A DNA stretch of 64,000 nt. It comes from a bacterium. Lineage in GTDB: Bacteria; Patescibacteriota; Microgenomatia; JAMCZE01. Position 1 is the stretch's first letter. Every line of letters starts with the position of its first letter. Shown piece by piece: positions 1 through 64,000 of the stretch. The position numbers and the translations under genes were made by a program. The stretch spans positions 44,370 to 108,369 of the forward strand of contig JAKBJL010000001.1 of assembly GCA_021836035.1 (NCBI GenBank). Direction: 5' to 3'. The notes under the pieces are model-generated. The model made no database searches. It was not told the DNA's origin and was given only the letters and a program-made list of their open reading frames with translations.

Positions 1-21
1 TAAAAATGCTATACTTTTAAT

Positions 22-1581
22 ATGGCCGCAGACCCTTCGGAAATGCAACATAAGGTTTTGGAGAACGATGCTTTCCGAGCGGCAAGAGTTAGGATTGAAA
101 AGTCCCACCGAATTAAGGAAGATCTCAAACCTTCCAACGGGAATCCGTATGACCGAGAGAGAGTACAAGAACTAAGAAACATTGAAATGCGATCGGAACA
201 AGGGCAGGCGGGCAAGGAAAGTGGCCTGGAAGAGTTAGTTTTGGACACCAGAGGTTACCAAGAACACCGCCTGACTCAGAAATACCTCTCTCCGGACGGT
301 AAATCGGAAATCTCCGAGCAATTAGTTTTCTTTGTAAAAATGAGCGACAAAGGACAACCAGAATGGTTAAGAGATTCCTCCGGGAATGTCCTTGCTCTAA
401 ATGGCGAGCTTTATGATTCCAGATTAAGTAGTCAAAAGCGTGCCCAGGGGTCGGATTATGATTCAAAAGTTATACTAAGAGTTGATGGACGCGGTGCTTA
501 TACGGGAGTAGTGACTCTCATCGAACCAAAGTCAACTTCTCAGACTCAGGGCGAGGCTAAGGGGCAAATCGCCGGGGAACCTTCGGTTGCGGCAACTCCT
601 GAAAAACCAGCGGAACAACAAACCAGAACTATAGATCAGCTAACCCAGATCCCTCTCGAAAAGATTGGAAATAGTTTCAGGTTAAATGAGGCAAACCCAC
701 CAAAACCAGATACTTTGTTAGCTCCGCTAATGGGAAATATGTACGGCGAGGATGACACGCCAACGCTTGCCGGTAAGGCTATCGCCAGCGTTTACGAACA
801 GCTTGTAGAAAGGCCAGGATATGTCAGAAGTAAAAGTGCTCAAGAAGCCCAAGCGATCATTGCCCAAGATAAATTATCCAGGGAACGATTCACCGACTAT
901 GTAAAGGCAAAGTTAACTGAGAGATGGCAAAACGGCAATCAAAGTGTAACATTCTCCTCTGAGCACGAGAGCGGCAGAGATGAATTCCATTTTAATGGCG
1001 AGGGTTGGGCTACCAAAGATCACGAACTTTACTTTAATAAATCGCATGCTAACTGGAAAAATCCCAACGAACCCGAAGTCAGGGCCTATCTTACCCTATC
1101 ACCTAAAGAGCGAGATCTGGTTCAAGAATATTTTGTCGATTTGGCGCTTCAGCTATATGATTCTGGGATTGATTTTTCCGCAAAATCCTCTGGTGCTGCG
1201 GGCTTAGCTCACAGAACAGATAACATGGTTTTCTATATTGCCGCTTCTGAGCAGGCAGGGGCTTCGGAAATAATCAAAAAATATATGACTGATAGAAATA
1301 TAGGCCAGGGCCACGTCATGGCTGCAATCCCAAGCCCACAAGAAGGCCTGTCCTGGGCAATGGAACCCAATGGGGCGCAAGATAAAGTTTGGCAAGAAGT
1401 AACGGGTTCTTCAAAAACTGCAAGCTTCAATGGTTTAGTAACGGCTTATGCAATTCCTACCTATCTTGAGCGGCTGGCTTTAGCAAATCTAAGGAAAAGC
1501 GATACTGTTGCTTCTGAAACTTTCAAGAAAGAGGCAAGCAGAGTGAGACAAATACTTTACCGACCGCCCGCACAACCATAA
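22..1581 (+). CDS. hypothetical protein (519 aa), no family recognised; C-terminal about 120 aa globular region
   Basis: Long uninterrupted ORF with protein-like composition. ATG at 22, just inside the window edge. Followed by an intrinsic terminator. Confidence 0.55.
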   Translation: MAADPSEMQHKVLENDAFRAARVRIEKSHRIKEDLKPSNGNPYDRERVQELRNIEMRSEQGQAGKESGLEELVLDTRGYQEHRLTQKYLSPDGKSEISEQLVFFVKMSDKGQPEWLRDSSGNVLALNGELYDSRLSSQKRAQGSDYDSKVILRVDGRGAYTGVVTLIEPKSTSQTQGEAKGQIAGEPSVAATPEKPAEQQTRTIDQLTQIPLEKIGNSFRLNEANPPKPDTLLAPLMGNMYGEDDTPTLAGKAIASVYEQLVERPGYVRSKSAQEAQAIIAQDKLSRERFTDYVKAKLTERWQNGNQSVTFSSEHESGRDEFHFNGEGWATKDHELYFNKSHANWKNPNEPEVRAYLTLSPKERDLVQEYFVDLALQLYDSGIDFSAKSSGAAGLAHRTDNMVFYIAASEQAGASEIIKKYMTDRNIGQGHVMAAIPSPQEGLSWAMEPNGAQDKVWQEVTGSSKTASFNGLVTAYAIPTYLERLALANLRKSDTVASETFKKEASRVRQILYRPPAQP

Positions 1582-1685
1582 TGACACCCTCAGTTTTTAG
1601 TTGACTTTTGTGCTGATATAACAATTGCCTGCGGCTCGCAAGGGTTGTGCGACTAAAACCTAAGCTGCAAGCAGGTACTTTTTAT

Positions 1686-1705
1686 TTGACGAAAATTGGT
1701 ATAAT
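1686..1705 (+). promoter_or_regulatory. putative promoter with extended -10 (TGGTATAAT), weak TTGACG 8 nt upstream
   Basis: TTGGTATAAT at 1696-1705. The identical 10-mer recurs upstream of trxB. No ORF downstream. Confidence 0.3.
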
Positions 1706-1711
1706 TCGGTT

Positions 1712-1810
1712 GCTCGAAAACACTCCGTAAGAACGCTTTCTCGAAAGAGCTGGAGACAGCCGGCCGCTTAAAAATGCTGGGTAACCAAGCCGTTGGCAGC
1801 TTGGTTTTTT
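1712..1810 (+). ncRNA. candidate small RNA (about 100 nt) between the extended -10 promoter and an intrinsic terminator
   Basis: Promoter-like element, then about 70 nt containing repeated CTCGAAA motifs, then hairpin AACCAAGC-CGTTGGCA-GCTTGGTT followed by a 6-T run. No ORF over 20 aa. Confidence 0.25.
1783..1810 (+). terminator. rho-independent terminator (8-bp stem plus T6)
   Basis: AACCAAGC CGTTGGCA GCTTGGTT TTTTTT, read directly. Confidence 0.5.
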
Positions 1811-1893
1811 AATGACTAAACCCCGGAGACGACTTGCTTAAGATTTACCATTGCTTCTACCGTGCGCTTTTGGTTTGCCGTTTGACGGCAAAG

Positions 1894-1956
1894 AATTTGG
1901 AACCACCCAAACGGCCCTTTGTGTCGAGAAGAGATGGCAAGCTGCGGTTCCAAATT
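1894..1956. repeat. perfect 11-bp inverted repeat AATTTGGAACC ... GGTTCCAAATT enclosing about 41 nt; adjacent 8-bp hairpin at 1873-1892
   Basis: Read directly. Lies in a roughly 1.2 kb stretch (1582-2773) with no convincing CDS. Confidence 0.5.
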
Positions 1957-2773
1957 ATACGATGGTGGACCTGAGCGGAATTGGACCGCTTACTTGACTA
2001 TGCCATAGTCACGTGATGCCGGTTCACCACAGGCCCAAGATTGGCTGGTCAAATTATAAACTAGGTTGGCCAAGCTTTCCAGCTCTAGCTGTACCTTAGT
2101 ATCGAAATAATCTAACCCTGATACTCCTTTATAATTCGCCCCCTTTGTAAGTCTTACTGCAACTCTTGGGCCTATTCGGGCTTTATAAAACAAACGTTCC
2201 GGAATACCAGTTATTTTTTGCCAATAACGGTTTAATTCGTAAATATTTTGACCAGTTCTGCGTGGACCGTGCGCCTTGCCTTAGAGATGCGAAAACTGGA
2301 ACACCTTCTCAACATGATGATTATACGCGGACCAGAGCTACCTAAGGTAAAAGCGTCCGAGCGGCCTGAGTACTCGGAGGCTTCTCCTCTGCAAAGCCTG
2401 GCCGGGGCAATCTTTGCCGCTTCTTTGTTGTTAACCTTTCTAGCTACCGGAAAATTGAGTTTATTAAGATTCTGAAGAAACATTTCCCGTCTCGTTTTAT
2501 TATCATTAAGAGCAATCGGTCGGCCTTTACTTAAATTGCTTGTCTTAAGGGTGGCAATTTTTTGAGAATATTCTGCGGAGAGAGAAACGCCTTTGGTAAG
2601 ACACGACAAGCTACTTTCGGGCGGGGACAATTGTAAGGCTAATTTAATCTCACTATCTGTTTTACCCAGCGCTCTTGGTTTATGAATTTGGGTAATAGTC
2701 TTTTGAGAGTATTCCCTATCTACAAAATTACTATACCCCCCGGTAAACTCCGTGTGCAAATAGGATAAAAAGG

Positions 2774-3439
2774 CTACTTTTTCGGCCAAATAGCAGCTGC
2801 CGGACGATAAATCTTGGTTAAGGGATGGTTTGCACAGTCATGCGGCCGGGCCGGGCATATTTGCCTTCCGTACTCAATTAGCCAATAGGTCCATTTAAAC
2901 CAAAGCTCTTGCGGGACAATTTGCATCAGATCTTGCTCAATTTTTGCGGGATCGCCGGAATCTGTAAGATCAAATTTTAAGGATAAGCGCCGGACATGGG
3001 TATCGACCGCAATGCCCTCGACTACCCCGTAAGCGTTTCCCAAAACCACGTTGGCCGTTTTGCGGGCAACTCCGGGGAGAGTGAGCATCTCGGCCATGGT
3101 CCGCGGCAGTTCTCCGCCATACTTTTCCTTTAGTGCCTTTGCCGCCCCCAAAATGCTCTTAGCTTTGTTATTAAAGAAGCCCGTGGATTTAATATCCTCA
3201 GAGAATAGCTTCAAATCAGCTCTAACATAATCATCCAGGGTCGGATATTTTCTAAAAAGCCCTTTCGTAACCTCGTTGACCTTTTTATCGGTGCATTGCG
3301 CGGAGAGGATAACTGCGACCAGAAGCTCCCAATTATTGCCATAATTTAAAACGATTTTAGCGTCGGGAAAAAGTTTCTGTAGGATCGGGGTCATCTTCCC
3401 GATCCGTTCCTTCCTCGCCCGAAGCTTTCCGGGTGTCAT
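2774..3439 (-). CDS. nth: endonuclease III (Nth, HhH-GPD DNA glycosylase) with degenerate Fe-S motif
   Basis: Aligns to E. coli Nth over LLVAVILSAQCTD, LPGVARKTANVV and VDTHV. C-terminus reads C-X6-C-X2-H-X5-Y instead of the four-Cys motif. Start chosen at MTPGKLRARKERIG, because the ORF-track N-terminus overlaps tRNA-Ala. Confidence 0.8.
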   Translation of the reverse strand: MTPGKLRARKERIGKMTPILQKLFPDAKIVLNYGNNWELLVAVILSAQCTDKKVNEVTKGLFRKYPTLDDYVRADLKLFSEDIKSTGFFNNKAKSILGAAKALKEKYGGELPRTMAEMLTLPGVARKTANVVLGNAYGVVEGIAVDTHVRRLSLKFDLTDSGDPAKIEQDLMQIVPQELWFKWTYWLIEYGRQICPARPHDCANHPLTKIYRPAAAIWPKK

Positions 3440-3531
3440 TATTGGTATAATAACAGAGAAATCTTCCCGGTCCCATAGGCAAAGGGCGGATTTACCTACC
3501 GAAGCTTTCGCGAAGGTAGGCCGCGTTGGCC

Positions 3532-3602
3532 GGGCCGTTAGCACAGCGGTAATGCACCGCATTCGCATTGCGGGGACGGGGGTTCGATTCCCCCACGGTC
3601 CA
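3532..3602 (+). tRNA. tRNA-Ala (anticodon CGC)
   Basis: Manual fold gives a 7-bp acceptor stem with the G3:U70 Ala identity pair and D-loop GG. Anticodon stem CCGCA/TGCGG with loop TTCGCAT. T-arm GGGGG-TTCGATT-CCCCC, discriminator A. CCA is not encoded. Confidence 0.75.
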
Positions 3603-3621
3603 CAGTTCAATTTTCAAACCC

Positions 3622-3780
3622 CCAAAAAGGGTAACAACCGCTGGGGGCCCAAAAGCGTTGCGCGGCCCCTCTCTTTTAAATAACCAGAGGAAAAATAGAA
3701 AAAGGGTGAGCTCCTGAAGCGATACCGTCGTCATAGCGAAGCCAGCGTTTTGGGAATGGGTGGCTGGGACCCTTGCCTTG
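3622..3780 (+). repeat. MITE-like intergenic repeat, copy A (divergent subtype shared with copy C)
   Basis: Begins AAAAGGGTAACAACCGCTGGGGGCCC and ends GGGTGGCTGGGACCCTTGCC. Positions 3644-3774 are nearly identical to 7567-7696. Confidence 0.7.
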
Positions 3781-3783
3781 ATA

Positions 3784-4860
3784 TTACTTCAGAAACAAGA
3801 GCGGATTGACGGCGCTACCCCCGCTGTAGACGGTGAAATGAAGGTGCGGACCGGTAGATCTCCCCGTAGAACCCATCTTCCCCAGAATTTCCCCGCGTCC
3901 CAGGTTATCACCGATATTGACAAAGATTTGAGAAAGATGCCCGTAGAGCGTCCGTAATCCGTTGCCATGGTCAATAATCACATGATAGCCATAATCATGA
4001 TTGTCATAAAGAACCGTCACCACCCGCCCGGCGTCCGCGGCTCGTACCGGCGTACCGATGCCATTGGCAATATCCGTGCCGTTATGGTACCAGGAAAAAT
4101 ATTGGGTGATAATCCCGTTGGTCGGCCAGACTAAAGTTCCGCTGCCGTGGGCAAAAAGGCCTACACTGGGGGTTGAACGTACCGGAGGCGGGGCAGCCAC
4201 TTCCGGAGGAACACCTCCCGGAATAACCAAATCCTGACCGGCTGCCAGGGTAAACTTCTCATCATCAACAAAATTGTTATACGGCCAGTCAATAATCGGC
4301 TGGGAGCTGGGCAAGCCGTATTTTTTCGCCAGGGAATAGATCGTGTCCCCGCTCTTAACCTTAAGGATAACCCCGGAAACCGGCGGAATTTTAATCTTGT
4401 CCCCCGGATGCAGATTATTAATGGAAATGTCAGAATTTAAATATTTGATCGAGTCCACATCAACCCCGAATTTTTTGGCAATAGCGGAAAGTGTATCCCC
4501 GCCCCGGACTTCGTATTCTTCCACATCCCGGCGGGGCTTCTCTGACTCAATGGTGGTAGTCGAGATGGTGGCGGCCGTCACCGTATTCAGTACTTCGGAG
4601 GGCGAAGCCGTCTCGCTACCGCCCGTTGCTTTGGTCGGGTAACGGTTATATAGAATCGGGGCCAAAACCATCGCCAAAACCAGAAGCGAGACCATCCCTA
4701 AATGCAAAAAGGGACGCTGATAAGCGCCCCTTCTGACGATTAATTTGGCTACCAAACGACCTTTACCGGCGTCAAATAAACTCCCCAGGATTCGCCCCTT
4801 CTTCGTAGCGTACCAGCCGATAAACCTCAGGCACTCCGCAATTTCCATATTAACCGACAT
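3784..4860 (-). CDS. LysM-domain M23 family metallopeptidase (peptidoglycan endopeptidase)
   Basis: Two LysM repeats (GDTLSAIAKKFGV, GDTIYSLAKKYGL). M23 motifs HNGTDIA and GSTGRSTGPHLHF. N-terminal TM anchor. Confidence 0.85.
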   Translation of the reverse strand: MSVNMEIAECLRFIGWYATKKGRILGSLFDAGKGRLVAKLIVRRGAYQRPFLHLGMVSLLVLAMVLAPILYNRYPTKATGGSETASPSEVLNTVTAATISTTTIESEKPRRDVEEYEVRGGDTLSAIAKKFGVDVDSIKYLNSDISINNLHPGDKIKIPPVSGVILKVKSGDTIYSLAKKYGLPSSQPIIDWPYNNFVDDEKFTLAAGQDLVIPGGVPPEVAAPPPVRSTPSVGLFAHGSGTLVWPTNGIITQYFSWYHNGTDIANGIGTPVRAADAGRVVTVLYDNHDYGYHVIIDHGNGLRTLYGHLSQIFVNIGDNLGRGEILGKMGSTGRSTGPHLHFTVYSGGSAVNPLLFLK

Positions 4861-4871
4861 GTGGTGCTTAG

Positions 4872-4900
4872 ACTTTACCCTGTGAAAATATCGCTGTCAA
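4872..4900 (-). promoter_or_regulatory. sigma70-like promoter for the M23 peptidase gene (TTGACA-17 nt-TAAAGT), near-leaderless
   Basis: Minus strand reads TTGACAGCGATATTTTCACAGGGTAAAGT. The -10 ends about 12 nt before the ATG at 4860. Confidence 0.4.
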
Positions 4901-4952
4901 GGAAGTCACAATAGCATCAAAAGGCATCATTTATCGATTGCGAATCTTTGGT

Positions 4953-5125
4953 TTAAAAAGGGTGGTAACTTACGGTGCGTGGCTTCTGGCAACACAAAAG
5001 CGTACGAACCCTCTCCCTTTTTGTTAAATCTGTTAAATTTACCAAGATATAGATACAAGAAACAAGACGCCAGGGGTGTATGGGAGTTAGCTTATCGGGG
5101 CTGCGGGTTGCCAGGGTCCTTGCCT
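4953..5125 (+). repeat. MITE-like intergenic repeat, copy B
   Basis: TTTAAAAAGGGTGGTAACTTACGG ... ACACAAAAGCGTACGAACCC ... GGGGCTGCGGGTTGCCAGGGTCC. Flanked by TTTAAAAA on the left and TTAAAAA on the right. Confidence 0.7.
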
Positions 5126-5133
5126 TAAAAAGG

Positions 5134-6561
5134 CTATCCGACTTTTAAACTTTTGAGGAAATCGGCATTGCTTTCTGTCTTCTCTAGCCGCCCGATCAGA
5201 GCTTCTGTCCGCTCTCCTTCCGTAAGCATGTCCAGCATGCGGACTAAAAGTTTGCGGGTAGCCATCTCTTCTTCCGTAAAAAGCCGCTCATCGTTTCTGG
5301 TACCGCTCTGGGCAACATCGATTGCCGGGTAAATCCTCCGCTCGGCCAGTTTCCGATCCAGGTGCAATTCCATATTGCCTGTGCCCTTGAATTCCTCATA
5401 AATTAAATCATCCATCCGGGAGTCGGTACTTACTAAAGCGGTGCCGATAATCGTCAAGCTGCCGCCGTCTTCCACACACCGGGCCGCGCCCAGGAACCTC
5501 TTAGCCGGATAAAGCGCCGTCGGATCAAATCCGCCGGAAAGGGTCCGCCCCGAAGAAGGCATAGCCAGGTTATAAGCCCGGGCAAGACGGGTAATCGAGT
5601 CCAACAGCATGACCACGTTTCTCCCGATCTCCACCAGGCGTTTAGCTCTTTCTATAGCGACTTCTGCCGCCCGGATTTGGGTTTGCGGCGGATCATCAAA
5701 ATTGGAAGCAATTACTTCGGCCTTTGTGCTCCGGCTGATATCCGTGACTTCCTCGGGTCTTTCCCCCACCAAAGCGATAATCAGGTGATAATCAGGATAA
5801 TTGGTAGTTATCGCGTTTGCGATCTCTTTTAGGAGCCAGGTCTTACCCGCTTTGGGTGGCGAAACAATCATCCCCCGTTGCCCGCGGCCGATCGGGGCTA
5901 TCAGATCAATAATACGAGTGCTAAGTGGTGTTTTTCCCGTCTCCAGGCGCAATTGCTTATCGGGGTAGATCGGCACCAGCTCGTCAAACCAGGGACGGGT
6001 TAAGGCCTGATCCGCGTCCACTCCGTTAACCTTATCAACACGCAGCAATCCGTAATATCTTTCCGTCTCTTTTGGGGCTCTTCCCAACCCCAAGACAAAA
6101 TCGCCGGGGCGCAAACTAAAGCGCCGGATCTGCGAACTACTGATATAAACATCCCGCTCCGAGGGCACGAATTTTGGCCGCAAAAAGCCGTGTCCTTCCG
6201 GCTGGATATCCAATACCCCGGAAAGTTCCATCGTCGGGACTCCGGCTTCGATATCGTTAAGCGGCCGGCTATAAACTTGCCCCGGGCCCGCGGAAGGACC
6301 TTGCCTTGGACTTGCTCCGGTTTGATCGGGGCTTGCCGAAGGAGCTTGTCCTGAGCCCACCGAAGGAATTGGGGCTTCAGCTTGCGCTAACGGCCTTAAC
6401 GGTTCTGCCGGAGCGACGGTTGCTGAATTGGGATTGGCAGCGGGAGTACCAACCAGGTCCTGAACACTAACCGGACCGCCGCTTCTCCCCGAAAGACGGG
6501 AAGGACGGCGGCTGGTGCCTGTTCGGCTACTTCTGAAACTACCTGTGTATTTTAGAGGCAT
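5134..6561 (-). CDS. rho: transcription termination factor Rho
   Basis: Low-complexity N-terminal extension, RNA-binding region (GVLDIQPEGHGFLR), Walker A GQRGMIVSPPKAGKT, and a conserved C-terminal ATPase. Confidence 0.9.
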   Translation of the reverse strand: MPLKYTGSFRSSRTGTSRRPSRLSGRSGGPVSVQDLVGTPAANPNSATVAPAEPLRPLAQAEAPIPSVGSGQAPSASPDQTGASPRQGPSAGPGQVYSRPLNDIEAGVPTMELSGVLDIQPEGHGFLRPKFVPSERDVYISSSQIRRFSLRPGDFVLGLGRAPKETERYYGLLRVDKVNGVDADQALTRPWFDELVPIYPDKQLRLETGKTPLSTRIIDLIAPIGRGQRGMIVSPPKAGKTWLLKEIANAITTNYPDYHLIIALVGERPEEVTDISRSTKAEVIASNFDDPPQTQIRAAEVAIERAKRLVEIGRNVVMLLDSITRLARAYNLAMPSSGRTLSGGFDPTALYPAKRFLGAARCVEDGGSLTIIGTALVSTDSRMDDLIYEEFKGTGNMELHLDRKLAERRIYPAIDVAQSGTRNDERLFTEEEMATRKLLVRMLDMLTEGERTEALIGRLEKTESNADFLKSLKVG

Positions 6562-6860
6562 ACCATTACTTTATGGGCTGGAAAATTCGTGAATAGATTC
6601 AAAAATTGGGGAAACCTCTTGTGAGAAACCAACTATATCTTATCCCAATCCCGTCTGTTGTCAAGTATGAACCCTGTCTCTATAGTTTTATGGAGATCCG
6701 GAAGCCTGCCCTACTCCCGGAACTCCATAAAGCTATCGAGATTCCACGGTTCTGACAATATTTTTTCACGCGCCTCTTGACAGGCGTGATCTATTCTGTT
6801 ACCACTATTGTTAGGTTATTGGTTTTGTCCTTTACTGCCTAAAGGTCAAAATCGGACCAA

Positions 6861-6908
6861 AAGCATCACTTTTCGAGTTCAGGCTGCGGAAGTGATGCTT
6901 TTCTTTTG
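6861..6908. terminator. 11-bp stem hairpin (AAGCATCACTT...AAGTGATGCTT) followed by TTCTTTT; strand assignment ambiguous
   Basis: Read directly. Lies in the long intergenic region upstream of rho, with no + strand gene upstream. Confidence 0.3.
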
Positions 6909-7125
6909 ATCCTAATAATATTTTCACCTAACCTACTAATTCCCTAAACCGTTGTCGTTGAAATAATATCTCTTCCGTTATCGGCGATAGCTTTCATAAC
7001 CTGGTGGCTGAATGAGGAGGTCCCCGTTTGGTTTTTCCCGACGGCAAGTCTTCTGCCGCTGTAGGTTTTTAATCTTCTGAGCATTTTCTTCCAAATATTA
7101 GCACGGTATGACATAGATATATATA

Positions 7126-7353
7126 CTACTTTATAATGCTACCCGCTTTGATAGATACCGCTGCCAGAGCTAGTACCGCCCCGCTAGCGATATCCTGGTT
7201 CCCGTTAACAAAAAGCAAATCGTTAATAGCCAGGGCAGCCAAAACTGTTCCGCCGGTAAATAACAAATATTTCAAAGACATTTTGTCGTGCTTTGTTTTT
7301 ACCTCGTCTGGCAATGTCATCCATCTTGATATTTCTGGTGCTGCGGCAGTCAT
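7126..7353 (-). CDS. small hypothetical membrane protein (75 aa, 2 predicted TM)
   Basis: Two hydrophobic helices. TTGACA-type promoter-like sequence upstream on the minus strand. An overlapping + ORF has no such support. Confidence 0.35.
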   Translation of the reverse strand: MTAAAPEISRWMTLPDEVKTKHDKMSLKYLLFTGGTVLAALAINDLLFVNGNQDIASGAVLALAAVSIKAGSIIK

Positions 7354-7549
7354 ATTTAGGCTTCTATATTAGCTATAACACCAGAGCCACTTCTTGTCAA
7401 GTCCGATAGTAAATATCATCCTGTATTATTATATATCCGATAGTTATTATAAAGAGGAGAAGGGCATAATAACGCCCAATTTCTAATATCAAGTTCCTAA
7501 TTTCTAATTGTGGACAAGTTGGGGATATACTTCTCTCTTTAGTTTTAAG

Positions 7550-7700
7550 GGGTTAACAGCCGCCGGGGGCCCAAAAGCGTTGCGCGGCCCCTCTCTTTTA
7601 AATAACCAGAGGAAAAATAGAAAAAGGGTGAGCTCCTGAAGCGATACCGTCGTCATAGCGAAGCCAGCGTTTTGGGAATGGGTGGCTGGGACCCTTAAAA
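7550..7700 (+). repeat. MITE-like intergenic repeat, copy C (near-identical to copy A)
   Basis: 7567-7696 matches 3644-3774 almost base for base. Confidence 0.7.
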
Positions 7701-7717
7701 TAAAATAGGGAGTTTAA

Positions 7718-14657: not shown

Positions 14658-14685
14658 TGTATAACATTAAACATCCGATATTTCT

Positions 14686-14694
14686 TGGTATAAT
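14686..14694 (+). promoter_or_regulatory. extended -10 promoter TGGTATAAT for trxB; ATG 6 nt downstream implies a leaderless mRNA
   Basis: TTGGTATAAT at 14685-14694, ATG at 14701, no SD. Sits in the 43-bp divergent region between the FNR-like gene and trxB. Confidence 0.45.
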
Positions 14695-14700
14695 AAGGGT

Positions 14701-15636
14701 ATGACTAAGAATATTTTTGAATCCGATCAAATCGGATTTGATGTAGCGATTATCGGCGGAGGTCCGGCGGGGCTGACGGCGGCTATTTATACCTCCCGGG
14801 CTAACTTAAAAACTCTGGTTTTAGCCGGGGAAAAATGGGGCGGGCAACTAATACTTACGACTACTGTCGAGAACTTTCCCGGTTTTCCCGAAGGCATTCA
14901 AGGCCCGGAATTAATGGAAAAAATGAAAGCCCAGGCGGAAAAATTCGGCTCCCAAATTGTTTTTGAAACAGTTACTTCCATCCGGCGCTCTGATGCTAAC
15001 CGCTTTACGCTTTCCGCTAACCGTTCTCAGTATAACGCCCGCAGCGTCATAGTAGCTACCGGCGCCGATACCGTCTGGCTGGGATTACCTAACGAGCAGC
15101 GTTTAATCGGCCACGGCGTTTCCTCCTGTGCTCCCTGCGATGCTTTCTTTTTCCGCGACAAAAAAGTAGCTGTCGTCGGCGGTGGCGATGCGGCGATGGA
15201 GGAAGCCCTGGTTCTCACTAAATTTGCCAGCGAGGTAACGATTATTCATAGGCGTGATACTTTCCGCGCCAGTAAAATTATGCAGGAACGGGTTCTTTCC
15301 CATCCCAAAATTAAGGTTTTATGGAATACCGAAGTTATAGATGTCCTCGGCGAAGGAAATGTTACCGGTCTTTCTCTCCAAACCGAAGGTAATAACTCTA
15401 CGCTCCCGTTTGACGGTTTATTTGTTGCTGTCGGCCACAAACCCAATTCCCAAATATTTGGCGACCTGGTAGAAACTGACGAGAAAGGCTATATTATTAA
15501 ATCAAAAACCCCGGGCCTTTTTATCGCCGGTGATGTGCAGGACCATACTTACCGGCAGGCGGTTACCGCCGCAGCTTTCGGAACCATGGCCGCCATGCAG
15601 GTTGAGAAATGGCTAGAAAATCAATCTGCCTCTTGA
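14701..15636 (+). CDS. trxB: thioredoxin-disulfide reductase
   Basis: FAD-binding GGGPAG, redox-active CAPC, NADPH-binding GGGDAAMEEA. Confidence 0.9.
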   Translation: MTKNIFESDQIGFDVAIIGGGPAGLTAAIYTSRANLKTLVLAGEKWGGQLILTTTVENFPGFPEGIQGPELMEKMKAQAEKFGSQIVFETVTSIRRSDANRFTLSANRSQYNARSVIVATGADTVWLGLPNEQRLIGHGVSSCAPCDAFFFRDKKVAVVGGGDAAMEEALVLTKFASEVTIIHRRDTFRASKIMQERVLSHPKIKVLWNTEVIDVLGEGNVTGLSLQTEGNNSTLPFDGLFVAVGHKPNSQIFGDLVETDEKGYIIKSKTPGLFIAGDVQDHTYRQAVTAAAFGTMAAMQVEKWLENQSAS

Positions 15637-39072: not shown

Positions 39073-39391
39073 AACTACGATAGGCTCAATCTCCAAATCC
39101 CCAACCGCGATTCCCCATAACTTAATTATTTCGTTTTTTTTCTCGTATTGCTGGCTATGGCTTCGGTTTCCTTTCCTTCCCGGGTTAACGGCCCCCTTTG
39201 TTCCTGACGACCCGGGTTAGTAGCGTAACCAATTGTTAACCAATGGTTAGTTTCTTTCGTCTCTTTTTTCACTATGGTATCGCAATTAATAAATGCCCGA
39301 CGGGTTGAGCAACCATCCGCTTCTTGGTCATTAGCGCCGACTGAAGTTGCCGACCCACTTGCCTGATCAATAATATTTGGTTTTGGAGGGT

Positions 39392-39420
39392 TTTAGGAAG
39401 AATCTTTAGGAAATTTAGGA
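39392..39420 (+). repeat. three direct repeats of TTTAGGA within 29 bp downstream of the recombinase gene
   Basis: Read directly at 39392-98, 39405-11 and 39414-20. Confidence 0.3.
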
Positions 39421-39532
39421 TACTAACGACGGAATTGAAGGTCCCTTTGGGAACCTTGTACTCTTTATTCGTGCGCAAACACAAATTCCCGGCTGGCGAT
39501 CCGATTGGCCGTTGGGTTATTGGGATTTGAAT

Positions 39533-39793
39533 TTATTTAATTTTCTCTAGGGCGTCTCCCTTCTCCACCGCCTGATCCACTTTAAGCGCGACATCCTGCC
39601 CTGGTTTGGCTTTTTCTACCGGTCTATGGTCAATCTGCATGGAGGTCACTTCCTGGGTAAATTCGCTGCCGTGACCGGCAATTTTTACCGTATCGCCTAC
39701 CGTCAAAGGAGAAGCCAGCTTTAAAGCTGCCACCCCGATCCGATCAAAATAGTGGGTCACCGTTCCTACCGCTTTGCTTTTTACCACAATCAT
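39533..39793 (-). CDS. small beta-barrel protein (about 86 aa), EF-Tu domain 2-like
   Basis: Start taken at MIVVKSKAVG. The longer track ORF overlaps the + M14 gene. Confidence 0.4.
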   Translation of the reverse strand: MIVVKSKAVGTVTHYFDRIGVAALKLASPLTVGDTVKIAGHGSEFTQEVTSMQIDHRPVEKAKPGQDVALKVDQAVEKGDALEKIK

Positions 39794-39922
39794 CACCCCC
39801 GTTCTGTTTATTTCTTTAATTATAATACCCGTCTTGCAAATCTTTTCTAATTTACCTAAACTTGGCTGTCTGCCCAGCAGAATTAGCATCAAATTCCCCC
39901 TGCCGAATTTGATTATTCCCAT

Positions 39923-56580: not shown

Positions 56581-56647
56581 AAACTTTACCTGCTTTCAGG
56601 ATAGAGAATTGGCGGCCTTTTTACAAGACTAATGATATAATCCGGGC

Positions 56648-58900
56648 ATGGGCAAAAACAAGGCCGGCAAGCATCAAAAGCCCAAATTGCCAGCGGTGGT
56701 CTGGCCCGCCCCGAAAAAATTATGGCGGAAGGTCCCGCCGGCTTTTTACCTTCCCTTAGCCGCCATCACCACGGCTTTACTGATCACCCTGGTTTCTCTG
56801 GTTTTTGTTTTTAAAGATCTTCCGGCCCCCATGAATCTCGACAGCAAAGCCATCCCGCAGACCACAAAGATTTTAGACCGCAACGGCCGCCTGCTTTACA
56901 ATATTTTTGTTTCCGAAAACCGCACGATTATTCCCCTTTCCCAAATGCCCAAAACCATACAACAGGCTACGATTTCCATTGAAGACAAAGATTTTTACCG
57001 CCACGGAGGAATTGACCTTATCGGAGGGATTGTCCGCGCAACCAAAGACATGCTTCTTTATCATCACCTGGAGGGCGGATCGACCATTACCCAACAGCTG
57101 ATTAAGCTCTCGCTGTTAACTCCCGAGCGAACGCTGACCCGCAAAATCAGAGAGGCAATCCTCGCCTTTTGGGTCGAGCGCCTTTACTCTAAAGACCAGA
57201 TTCTTTCTATGTACTTAAACCGGGTGCCTTATGGAGGCACCGCTTACGGCGTCGAAGAGGCCGCCCAGGTGTATTTCGGGAAGCATGCCAAGAACTTAGA
57301 CCTGGCGGAGTCGGCGCTTCTGGCGGGTCTTCCCCAGGCCCCGACCTATTATTCTCCCTTCGGGACCGATCCGCAGCGCGCCGTCGACCGCCAGCACCAG
57401 GTTTTAACCCGCATGCTCGAAGACGGCTATATCACGACGGCACAAAAAGGAGCAGCGGAAGCAGAAGAACTCCATTTCGCTTCCCCCTCTGCCGGCATCA
57501 AAGCCCCCCATTTCGTCGCTTATGTCAAAGAACAATTAGTAAAAAAATACGGCGAACAACAGGTCGAGCAGGGCGGTTTATGGGTAACCACAACTTTAGA
57601 TCTGGATTTACAGCAGGCGGCCCAGGCTTCCCTCTCCGCCCAGGTAGAAAAACAGGCCAATTTAAAAGTGGGCAACGGCGCGGCTTTGGTGACCCGCCCG
57701 GAAACCGGCGAAATCCTGGCCATGATCGGGTCCAAGGATTATTTTGCTTCCGATTCCGGCAAAGTCAACGTCACCCTGGCAGAACGCAGCCCCGGTTCCA
57801 GTATCAAACCCCTGAATTATGCTTTGGGGTTCCTCAACGGCAAGACCACTCCGGCGACCGCTTGGATAGATGGACCCTTCTGCTTTCCGCCCTACTTGGG
57901 TAAAAGCTATTGCCCGACCGATTACGACGGCCGCTTCCACGGCGTTGTCCAGACCCGCTTTGCTTTGGGCAATTCCCTGAATGTTCCGGCGGTCAAAGAG
58001 CTCGCCCTTAACGGCATTGACGATTTTATTGCCACCGCTTCGGCCATGGGCATTACTACTTTCACCGATAAAAACCGCTACGGCTATTCCTTAACTTTGG
58101 GCGGCGGCGAGGTCAAGATGGTCGATCTGGCCACCGCTTTCGGCGTTTTTGCCAATGCCGGCCGGCGCCAGGATCTCTTATCAATCTTAAAAGTGGAAGA
58201 CAGCAGGGGCAACGTGTTAGAAGATAACACCCCCGACCTTCTGGAAATTAAAAAGGAAGAGTTAAAAATAACACCGTGGGACGGGAGCAGGCCTTGGGTG
58301 CCGCACGGCAGCTATGTCCTGCCTTCGGAGGTCACCTATCTTATTTCCCATATTCTCCTGGACGATTCCGCCCGGGCGATGACTTTCGGCGCCGGCTCCG
58401 TTTTAAATATCCCCGGGCATACCGTTTCCGTCAAAACCGGCACTACCGAGGACAAACGGGATAATTGGACCATCGGTTATACCCCGTCTTTTCTGGTCGC
58501 CGTCTGGGTCGGTAATAACGACAACTCCCCCATGAGCCCGGCTTTGGAGTCGGGCAACACCGGGGCTGCGCCTATTTGGCATGAAATTATGAGCTACGTT
58601 CTACGCGGGAGCCCCAATGAGTGGCCCGCTAAACCCGAGAATGTTGTCTTCACGGAGGTCTGCAGTTTGTCCGGTTTGCTTCCCGATCACGGCTGCCCCC
58701 AGCGCGGGGAATATTTTATTAAAAATTTTGTCCCTACCCAGAAGGATCATCTCGATAAACATAAGGTTTTCGTTTACAAAGACTCCCATAAAGTTCCGGG
58801 GCCTAATGACAAACCCACTCCAGATCAACTAACCGAAGAGGAACACACCTTTCTCTCAGATCCCCTGCAAAAAGACTTCTGTGTCGATTGCGCCCTGTGA
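56648..58900 (+). CDS. class A penicillin-binding protein (bifunctional GT51 transglycosylase/transpeptidase)
   Basis: N-terminal TM. GT51 motifs EDKDFYRHGGID and GGSTITQQL. Transpeptidase SxxK (SPGSSIKP), SLN and KTGTT. Confidence 0.9.
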   Translation: MGKNKAGKHQKPKLPAVVWPAPKKLWRKVPPAFYLPLAAITTALLITLVSLVFVFKDLPAPMNLDSKAIPQTTKILDRNGRLLYNIFVSENRTIIPLSQMPKTIQQATISIEDKDFYRHGGIDLIGGIVRATKDMLLYHHLEGGSTITQQLIKLSLLTPERTLTRKIREAILAFWVERLYSKDQILSMYLNRVPYGGTAYGVEEAAQVYFGKHAKNLDLAESALLAGLPQAPTYYSPFGTDPQRAVDRQHQVLTRMLEDGYITTAQKGAAEAEELHFASPSAGIKAPHFVAYVKEQLVKKYGEQQVEQGGLWVTTTLDLDLQQAAQASLSAQVEKQANLKVGNGAALVTRPETGEILAMIGSKDYFASDSGKVNVTLAERSPGSSIKPLNYALGFLNGKTTPATAWIDGPFCFPPYLGKSYCPTDYDGRFHGVVQTRFALGNSLNVPAVKELALNGIDDFIATASAMGITTFTDKNRYGYSLTLGGGEVKMVDLATAFGVFANAGRRQDLLSILKVEDSRGNVLEDNTPDLLEIKKEELKITPWDGSRPWVPHGSYVLPSEVTYLISHILLDDSARAMTFGAGSVLNIPGHTVSVKTGTTEDKRDNWTIGYTPSFLVAVWVGNNDNSPMSPALESGNTGAAPIWHEIMSYVLRGSPNEWPAKPENVVFTEVCSLSGLLPDHGCPQRGEYFIKNFVPTQKDHLDKHKVFVYKDSHKVPGPNDKPTPDQLTEEEHTFLSDPLQKDFCVDCAL

Positions 58901-61493: not shown

Positions 61494-61956
61494 CCTATAG
61501 TTATAGGGCATGAAAATCAATTCGGCTTTCTATGCCCGCTTATTGCAGCTGGTCGTTTTGCTCGTCGTTCTGCCGATAACTGTTTATCTGGCAAACCACG
61601 AAACTTCTTTATATGCTAATTCCTTACCGCTGGCTTCCTGGCTACTGCACTAGCCGCTTATCCGCAAATTCATAACCAATTTTCGCGCATGCCTTAATTT
61701 TACGCAGGTCGGCGCGGATCGGGCGCCCAAAAAACAGGTTATAAGCCCCTCCTTTTTAACTAAACCGGGGAGAAGCAACGTCTAAAAGAGAACGTTCCCG
61801 AAATTGTCGTTGTTCCGGGGCGCATGGGATTTTTTGAGCTGATTCGTGACGGGACTTTAGCTAGGATTATGATAGGCAAATTTCCCCATTGATAATTAAA
61901 AAATCTTCATCAATAATGCGCGTAGATCTTGGGAAGCATACCGACTCGTCCCGGGT

Positions 61957-64000
61957 ATGCCGCACAAAAAAGATGAATCCTTTCTACATCTAGGGGTCAT
62001 CAATTTCGTCCGGAAGTTTTTATATACTGCCGGAACTCCGTTATTTTTCGCGCTGCAAATTCTCGCCTGGACTGTTCTCTGGCTCGCCGATCAATTTCTC
62101 CAGATTGCCCGGGCGATTCTCTTTATTATCTTCGGGATCCTGGAAACTATCATTTGGTTTGGGGAACTTTTAACCAATTTCTTTTCCGGGAAATTTTTGC
62201 CGGTATTCCATAAGCTTCTCCACCCCCCGAAAGTCATTTATCGGCACCGGGGAAAAATCGCGGAAAAAATTTTCAGCTCTGCCGCTACCCTGCGTGACGG
62301 TTTTACTCAAATCATCCCGGCCTTCCGGCAGCAATTCCGGCTTCGGCTTTCTTTTTTATCGGCTTTCCGCCTGCCAACCCTTAGCCTCACCCATTTAACC
62401 CTCCCCCGACGCCGACCCGCTCCCGTCCGCTTCCGCAAAACAAAACCCGGACGTCCCGCGCTCTTTTCTCGCAGTTTCCTTTTGGTCCTCTTGGGTTTTG
62501 CCTTTTGCTTCTTTTTACTTTTCCTCCCCTTCTGGATTATCTCTACTCTAGGCAAACTCCCCGATCCGAGACTTTTGGCCGTCCGCGATATCCCCTTGTC
62601 AACAAAAATTTATGACCGCAACGGCGACCTCCTTTACCAAATTTATGCCGACGAAAACCGCACTCTTGTTTCTCTCGATACCCTTCCCCCATATGTAGCC
62701 CAGGCAACAGTGGCGATTGAAGATAAAAATTTTTACCACCACCCCGGTTTTGACCCCCAGGGCATCATCCGAGCTGCCCTTGCCAACACCAACGGTGAAA
62801 GCGTCCAGGGCGGATCAACGATCACCCAGCAGCTGGTAAAAACCGTTTTCCTTACTCCGGAAAAGACCCTGGAACGCAAAATCAAAGAGATTATTCTTTC
62901 CTTTTGGGCGGAGCGTCTCTTTTCCAAAAAACAAATTCTCACCATGTACCTAAACCAGGTAGCTTATGGCGGAGCCGCTTACGGTATCGAAGAAGGAGCC
63001 CGTACCTATTTCGGCAAGCCAGCCCACGATCTTTCTCTCCCCGAAGCCGCTTTGTTGGCCGGATTGCCCTCCGCCCCCTCGGCCTATTCCCCCTTCGGGG
63101 CCCACCCGGAAATGGCTAAAACCCGGCAGCGCCAGGTGCTTGCCGCCATGCGGGAACAGGGGTATATCACCCCTGAAGAAGCCGTCACGGCGGAACAGAC
63201 GGAACTGCGTTTTGCCCGACAGGCAACGCTTATCAAGGCGCCTCATTTCGTCATGTATGTCAAAGATTATCTCGTCAAAAAATACGGCATCCGGGCAATG
63301 GAAAGGGGCGGCCTGGAAGTTACTACCAGCCTGGATTACCCGACCTACGAAGCAGTAGCTAAAATGCTAAAAGACGGCGTGGAAGCGCAGAGAGGTTTAA
63401 ACGTCGGTAACGGCGCGGCTTTGGTTACTAAACCCAAAACCGGGGAAATTCTGGCCATGGTTGGCTCTATCGACTTCTTCAACCTGGCCCATGACGGCAA
63501 TGTCAACGTTACTATCGCTCCGAGAAGCCCCGGTTCCTCCATCAAGCCCCTCAATTACGCCCTGGCTTTGGAAAAAGGTATTCTTACGCCCTCTACCATT
63601 ATTTCCGACTCGCCGGTAATTTACCGCACCGCCGGGGCGCCGGATTATATTCCCGTCAATTACGACAACCGTTTCCACGGCCAGGTTACCGCCCGGGTCG
63701 CCCTCGCTTCTTCCTATAACATCCCCGCGGTTAAAGTCCTGGAAAAAAACGGCTTGCGCAACTTCCTGGATTTTGCCCGCAAAATGGGCATTACCACCTG
63801 GACCGACCCCAGCCGTTTTGGTCTGGCCTTAACCCTGGGCGGCGGCGAGGTAACTATGGTCGATATGGCTAACGCCTATAGCGCTTTTGCCAACGGCGGC
63901 AGTAAAGTAAATTTAAATCCGGTGCTTCTGGTCAAAGATTACCGCGGCCAGATTTTAGAAGACAACCGCAGTTATACCAAATCCGAGCAGGTTATTTCCG
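61957..64000 (+). CDS. second class A PBP paralog with a roughly 180-aa N-terminal extension; frame disruptions near 62460-62580; 3' end beyond the window
   Basis: From 62581 the sequence reads VRDIPLSTKIYDRNG...EDKNFYHHPGFD...GGSTITQQL...SPGSSIKP...KTG in one frame. The upstream homologous segment (GKLPDPRLLA) is in another frame, and a Met-initiated frame from 61957 is in a third. This ORF is not in the supplied ORF track. Confidence 0.65.
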   Translation, partial: MPHKKDESFLHLGVINFVRKFLYTAGTPLFFALQILAWTVLWLADQFLQIARAILFIIFGILETIIWFGELLTNFFSGKFLPVFHKLLHPPKVIYRHRGKIAEKIFSSAATLRDGFTQIIPAFRQQFRLRLSFLSAFRLPTLSLTHLTLPRRRPAPVRFRKTKPGRPALFSRSFLLVLLGFAFCFFLLFLPFWIISTLGKLPDPRLLAVRDIPLSTKIYDRNGDLLYQIYADENRTLVSLDTLPPYVAQATVAIEDKNFYHHPGFDPQGIIRAALANTNGESVQGGSTITQQLVKTVFLTPEKTLERKIKEIILSFWAERLFSKKQILTMYLNQVAYGGAAYGIEEGARTYFGKPAHDLSLPEAALLAGLPSAPSAYSPFGAHPEMAKTRQRQVLAAMREQGYITPEEAVTAEQTELRFARQATLIKAPHFVMYVKDYLVKKYGIRAMERGGLEVTTSLDYPTYEAVAKMLKDGVEAQRGLNVGNGAALVTKPKTGEILAMVGSIDFFNLAHDGNVNVTIAPRSPGSSIKPLNYALALEKGILTPSTIISDSPVIYRTAGAPDYIPVNYDNRFHGQVTARVALASSYNIPAVKVLEKNGLRNFLDFARKMGITTWTDPSRFGLALTLGGGEVTMVDMANAYSAFANGGSKVNLNPVLLVKDYRGQILEDNRSYTKSEQVIS

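Follow-up and report, generated by a model that had tools for sequence, protein, structure and literature searches.

The first gene of the 64,000-nt stretch of DNA analysed here (the window) is followed by a 381-nt spacer, and the question raised by this spacer is whether it encodes a small RNA (sRNA) of its own. A sequence-only reading had proposed a candidate sRNA at this position, with its own extended -10 promoter and intrinsic terminator. The spacer separates two convergent genes, ORF1 on the plus strand and tRNA-Ala(GGC) on the minus strand, and holds the candidate together with its signals:

7-15, plus strand: putative promoter of ORF1, TGCTATACT
22-1581, plus strand: ORF1, HopA1 family, 519 aa, predicted to be leaderless
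1686-1691, plus strand: TTGACG, a -35-like hexamer read from the sequence, 8 nt from the -10
1697-1705, plus strand: extended -10 element TGGTATAAT, an exact TGnTATAAT (TG at 1697-1698, TATAAT at 1700-1705)
1783-1806, plus strand: hairpin of the intrinsic terminator, with its T-run at 1805-1810 (terminator scan, hairpin energy)
1963-2036, minus strand: tRNA-Ala(GGC), detected with ARAGORN, previously unannotated, converging on the candidate

At its upstream end, the candidate carries an exact sequence match to the extended -10 (TGn) sigma-70 promoters and, as is typical of that class, no usable -35 element. The hexamer TTGACG was rejected as a -35, as its spacer to the -10 is just 8 nt, and it is probably not functional as such. 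The correctly spaced hexamers (1676-1683) are T-rich and non-matching, and a canonical sigma-70 scan, which requires a spacer of 16-18 nt, called no promoter at the candidate. Since TTGACG is mis-spaced, it is the extended -10 by itself that defines the candidate promoter. On the minus strand there is neither a promoter nor a gene of which the TGGTATAAT motif could be a by-product.

The 10-mer TTGGTATAAT at 1696-1705 (plus strand) has a second copy at 14685-14694, where a Pyr_redox_2/thioredoxin-reductase-like gene has its ATG (14701) 6 nt further on; this bears out the identity with the trxB promoter that had been pointed out in the sequence-only reading. The exact TGnTATAAT is found four times in the 64-kb window, compared with 1.8 expected, and 11 of 100 shuffled sequences reach four, so the count by itself is not significant. 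This agrees with a rival explanation, in which the hairpin and T-run are the plain terminator of ORF1, whose 3' UTR would then measure about 225 nt, while TGGTATAAT, lying in AT-rich intergenic DNA, is incidental or weak and yields at most a functionless short transcript; we regard this explanation as a serious possibility, if not quite a probable one. The placement of the four copies argues against an incidental promoter, as all of them lie outside real genes and none inside, although coding sequence makes up about 82% of the window. Of the other three, two precede long ORFs, with a spacing of exactly 6 nt to the ATGs at 14701 and 56648, and the mRNAs of these ORFs would be leaderless; the remaining one (TGGTATAAT, plus strand, within 3439-3455) is directed at tRNA-Ala(CGC), whose start at 3532 lies 81 nt downstream. 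In its looser form, TGnTAnnnT followed by 6-7 nt and an ATG, the arrangement is found at about 15 gene starts, including those of ORF1, nth and rho, and window-wide there are 40 configurations of a -10, 6-7 nt and an ATG, against 17 in a displaced-spacer control. This recurrence at gene starts indicates that the extended -10 is a working promoter type here, one which, judging from the spacing, often starts leaderless mRNAs; a perfect extended -10, such as that of the candidate, is the strongest form of this promoter type, which again speaks against an incidental motif.

At the downstream end, the terminator consists of a G+C-containing stem (4 G-C), an 8-nt loop and an adjoining T-run (AACCAAGC / loop CGTTGGCA / GCTTGGTT). 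It had been described as a strong terminator with an 8-bp stem plus T6; the terminator is indeed present, but two of the Ts were counted twice in that description, and the correct assignment is either a 6-bp stem (4 G-C) with T6 or an 8-bp stem with T4. The hairpin is modest (-9.9 kcal/mol, with its 8-nt loop), and the terminator is unidirectional, with no T-run on the minus-strand side. Perfect-stem terminators number five in the window (both strands), compared with 0.55 in shuffled sequences, and at least two of the other four are located just past gene ends, on the correct strand. The one at 1783-1810 (stem-loop core 1785-1804) is the sole perfect-stem terminator on the plus strand of the window, and the cleanest terminator within positions 1-6000.

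Terminator scans revealed no other terminator-like site on the plus strand between the ORF1 stop codon at 1581 and position 1783 (1582-1783), and therefore 1783-1810 is the only plausible terminator for ORF1, whose predicted transcript most likely ends there. This is what the plain-terminator explanation calls for, and the convergence of ORF1 and tRNA-Ala also favours it, as terminators are to be expected in such a spacer regardless of any further transcript. However, the 3' UTR that it implies is long for a compact genome, in which most co-directional spacers are shorter than 100 nt. Within this predicted 3' UTR, we observed a 14-nt segment (1655-1668) that could pair, with 86% complementarity, with the terminator's 3' arm and T-tract (1796-1809). 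The segment would be present in the long ORF1 transcript only, where it could act as an anti-terminator; this pairing is not favoured in the minimum free energy (MFE) structure.

The promoter thus lies about 80 nt before the terminator, in the order that had been proposed, and the motifs, in kind and in position, agree with the way this genome marks starts and ends of transcription. Because both signals match the genome's own usage, a transcript of about 99 nt, running from G1712 to about 1810, is plausible:

1712, plus strand: predicted transcription start, a G, the 7th base past the -10, placed from the -10/6-nt/ATG spacing at about 15 leaderless genes
1712-1810, plus strand: predicted non-coding transcript of about 99 nt, from the promoter and terminator positions
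1707-1719 and 1734-1746, plus strand: imperfect direct repeat CGGTTGCTCGAAA / CGCTTTCTCGAAA, 11/13 identical, 27-nt spacing
1723-1755, plus strand: predicted internal hairpin with the loop CUCGAA, outer stem 1723-1727/1751-1755 and inner stem 1735-1739/1746-1750 (MFE structure)

The reading that we favour, tentatively and with somewhat less than even confidence, is that the 3' region of the HopA1-like gene contains a small unit that is transcribed independently. From the -35-independent extended -10 TGGTATAAT (1697-1705), RNA polymerase would begin transcription at about G1712 and halt at the intrinsic terminator at 1783-1810; the product, a non-coding RNA of about 99 nt, would have this terminator in common with the upstream leaderless ORF1 mRNA. 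The layout is of the 3'-UTR type, with the stop codon at 1581, the promoter at 1697 and the sole plus-strand terminator at 1783-1810, both transcripts being predicted from these positions. From the same signals we infer the firing of the promoter, the positions of the 5' and 3' ends and any regulatory role. If the RNA is functional, it would most likely act by base-pairing in trans, using for this the 5' end (GCUCGAAAACA), which is unpaired, or the CUCGAA loop. The pairing of the two signals may be coincidental, as ORF1 needs a terminator anyway; the chance probability of a perfect promoter and such a terminator in the right order within 300 nt is, by our estimate, p ~0.04 to 0.2, depending on whether both signals are confined to intergenic DNA.

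In agreement with the sequence-only reading, there is no ORF of at least 20 aa between the promoter and the terminator. The single ORF of this size that touches the interval is a 27-aa GTG ORF (1647-1730), which spans the promoter. The predicted transcript begins with GCT, which is not a start codon, and the frame that opens at 1712 runs for 19 codons to a TAA, while an ATG at 1774 starts a 12-codon frame that passes through the terminator and has no Shine-Dalgarno sequence. A small protein gene was rejected on these grounds, namely the lack of an ORF of at least 20 aa inside and the GCT at +1. The candidate differs in this respect from the usual extended -10 promoters of the genome, which would start a leaderless mRNA at an ATG 7 nt downstream, whereas here transcription would start with a G and continue into non-coding sequence.

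The same difference can be explained if the promoter is a relic, left over from a leaderless gene that rearrangement has since removed or shortened, and is now stranded before the terminator of its neighbour. The motif normally stands 6 nt before an ATG in this genome and here it is followed by GCT, with a frame of 19 codons that lacks a start codon; the region looks, in addition, like a variable one, with an ORF1 that has no conserved neighbours, an IS1595 transposase about 0.6 kb upstream of ORF1 and an orphan 185-aa ORF. Against this, no decayed coding sequence was found, in a region that has no homologue for comparison, and a perfect 9/9 motif is unlikely to last long without selection. 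We consider a relic decidedly unlikely.

ORF1 itself is a member, in a CPR bacterium, of the HopA1 family of type III effectors. Its homologues (41-59% identity; about 50%, at most 52%, in the comparison of neighbourhoods) have different neighbours in every relative, and the IS1595-type transposase is encoded upstream of it (L001 8532-9377), which together suggest that ORF1 is a mobile or variable gene. We found no match that would indicate a phage or viral origin. Within 10 kb, the tRNA 3' end is not repeated, as it would be in a tRNA-linked island with an att repeat.

The internal features of the predicted RNA are unremarkable. The heptamer CTCGAAA does occur twice in the interval, as had been noted (1713-1719 and 1740-1746), and this is a chance-level result, as about 0.3 repeats of a 7-mer are expected in about 100 nt by our own calculation. 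The 13-nt direct repeat, which contains both copies, is by our estimate marginal or likewise at chance level. The RNA from 1712 to 1810 has an MFE of -23.9 kcal/mol (z = +0.76), and 155 of 200 shuffled sequences fold as well. Folding beyond that of shuffled sequences was also not observed for the whole 3' region (z = +0.07) or for the minus strand of 1686-1812 (z = -1.47). The hairpin at 1723-1755 appears in the MFE structure, is missing from the centroid structure and has no covariation support.

We searched for a family, a paralogue and a target of the candidate. Rfam 15, applied to the whole window at gathering thresholds and to 1400-3000 with E-values up to 10, gave no match in 1686-1810 at either setting. 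Neither the window nor the 10 kb upstream contains a paralogue; the best match is an identity of 14 nt within rho, to its sense strand and hence not complementary. The duplex energies of the RNA with 59 gene starts of the window are no better than those of shuffled sRNAs, a comparison that we used on its own because the absolute energies printed by the program look inflated, and the complementarity of the 5' seed to the gene starts of the window is below chance.

The nearest relatives of the proteins encoded in the window are found in Patescibacteria/CPR, for example in Gottesmanbacteria and Roizmanbacteria, and the only other copies of the region come from the same organism (metagenome-assembled genome (MAG) GCA_027371575.1, contig DAHXMT010000002.1), with 100% identity. 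In a collection of genome contigs, the ORF1 search revealed no relatives and the tRNA T-arm pattern gave 0 matches. The closest Nth proteins are 71-74% identical and do not share the gene order. In 80 metagenome loci around relatives of Nth, searches with 1582-2060 (blastn and nhmmer) gave no match, and no tRNA-Ala was found beside nth. A covariance model built from the single sequence detected no homologue, its best foreign match having 13.9 bits (E = 1.1), and no sequence or structure match to the candidate was present in 84 relative sources (581 kb). Conservation in relatives, the lack of which had been named as evidence against the candidate, is thus formally negative, yet this result is uninformative and does not amount to a refutation, because even the nearest relatives are far removed and have no gene order in common. 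ORF1, Nth and Rho are each the single member of their 90% cluster, which makes the covariation analysis that had been suggested impossible with public data.

Of the original proposal, the promoter and terminator calls stand, but the further step to a functional sRNA has gained no independent support, since Rfam family, unusual structure, paralogue, homologue and target signal are all missing. The absence of structure, conservation, paralogue and target signals favours a functionless transcript, as in the plain-terminator explanation. That the transcription unit encodes a genuine lineage-specific trans-acting sRNA of this Microgenomates-type CPR/Patescibacteria bacterium is, in our view, unlikely. 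With many mRNAs of this genome apparently leaderless, the targets of such an sRNA would have to be regulated at their 5' ends or within their coding regions, and not at ribosome-binding sites.

The minus-strand side of the spacer, and what follows it, holds these features:

2081-2053, minus strand: putative promoter of tRNA-Ala(GGC), TGGAAA-17-TATAAT (promoter scan)
within 1874-1956: perfect inverted repeat AATTTGGAACC/GGTTCCAAATT, 11 bp (13 bp in the predicted fold), 41-nt loop
within 1874-1956: perfect inverted repeat TTTGCCGT/ACGGCAAA, 8 bp
1990-2193, minus strand: 67-aa ORF, after the 185-aa ORF and in another frame
2232-2789, minus strand: 185-aa ORF, overlapping the end of nth by 16 nt

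The tRNA-Ala(GGC) has a full cloverleaf with a G3.U70 pair, its CCA is encoded, and its T-loop, UCCAAUU, is unusual (C at position 55); Rfam gave no tRNA-Ala(GGC) call at 1963-2036, even with E-values up to 10. Its orientation raises the possibility of a cis-antisense or insulating element, in which read-through from the start at 1712 would be antisense to the 3' trailer and body of the tRNA, and vice versa. The tRNA (2036-1963) has its own putative promoter and converges on the unit, and the minus-strand hairpins past it have poor T-tracts, so that read-through into 1810-1712 is conceivable. The plus-strand terminator, on the other hand, is the best of the region and lies 150 nt from the tRNA 3' end, and the reading is wholly speculative; we judge it very unlikely.

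A structured RNA on the minus strand, such as a two-piece tmRNA, would also make the plus-strand signals incidental. Weak minus-strand Rfam matches were obtained at 1912-1990, to cyano_tmRNA (16.4 bits) and tmRNA_permuted (13.8 bits), but these scores are far under the gathering thresholds (70 and 47 bits, respectively), and the fold of 1686-1812 on this strand is unremarkable, as seen above. The tmRNA was rejected: the Rfam matches correspond to the T-arm and ACCA end of the complete tRNA-Ala(GGC), and ARAGORN detected no tmRNA. A structured RNA on this strand is thus extremely unlikely.

Several minor observations concern the surroundings of the tRNA. The two inverted repeats in 1874-1956, just past the tRNA on the minus strand, may be terminators or processing structures of the tRNA transcript. 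Copies of the 9-mer TATAATTTG (minus strand) lie on both sides of the tRNA (2058-2050 and 1959-1951), as could happen by chance. Among 5.8 billion proteins there is no homologue of the 185-aa ORF; it and the 67-aa ORF could represent an orphan gene, a pseudogene with a frameshift, or non-coding DNA. Elsewhere in the window there are three stretches that lack an ORF of at least 80 aa, 6562-7717 (1156 nt), 39073-39922 (850 nt) and 61494-62306 (813 nt), and in these Rfam gave no match at gathering thresholds.

The transcription unit that we favour can be compared with known systems. The type I 3'-UTR-derived sRNAs, such as MicL and DapZ of enterobacteria, are transcribed from promoters of their own. 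The candidate resembles them in its promoter close to where the upstream gene ends, its predicted short non-coding transcript and its shared Rho-independent terminator. It differs from them in that its promoter is placed after the stop codon, and not inside the coding sequence, and in that it is a prediction from sequence which has no sequence homology to them and no known context of an Hfq-type chaperone, seed conservation or target. The candidate is also similar to generic orphan sRNA predictions, which follow the same logic of an intergenic promoter and a Rho-independent terminator at a distance of 50-300 nt. Such predictions normally also demand conservation of the region, the pair of signals alone having a high false-positive rate. 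The candidate belongs to no curated RNA family, and it would join known kinds of sRNA if real.

To our knowledge, the biology of regulatory RNAs in the Candidate Phyla Radiation appears essentially unexplored, and our literature search found nothing on sRNAs in Microgenomates-type CPR/Patescibacteria, and nothing relevant to the candidate on CPR sRNAs or leaderless transcripts. If expressed and functional, the candidate would be among the very few concrete sRNA genes proposed for this radiation, and would offer a way into the RNA regulation of leaderless mRNAs. At present, it is a prediction from the sequence of a singleton metagenome-assembled genome, and it answers no open question.

A sturdier by-product of the analysis is the placement of the extended -10 element in this genome. 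The -10 boxes, often with an upstream TG, end exactly 6 nt, and sometimes 7 nt, before many ATGs, as in the following examples:

7-24, 14686-14703, 22785, 56633-56650 and 60210, plus strand: -10 box before an ATG
3455-3437, 6561, 12003, 43419 and 53280, minus strand: -10 box before an ATG

This arrangement implies that leaderless mRNAs are widespread in this Patescibacteria genome. At 3439-3455, two divergent promoters overlap back to back, one being the plus-strand TGGTATAAT directed at tRNA-Ala(CGC), and the other the predicted leaderless promoter of nth, TGTTATTAT on the minus strand, 7 nt before the nth ATG.
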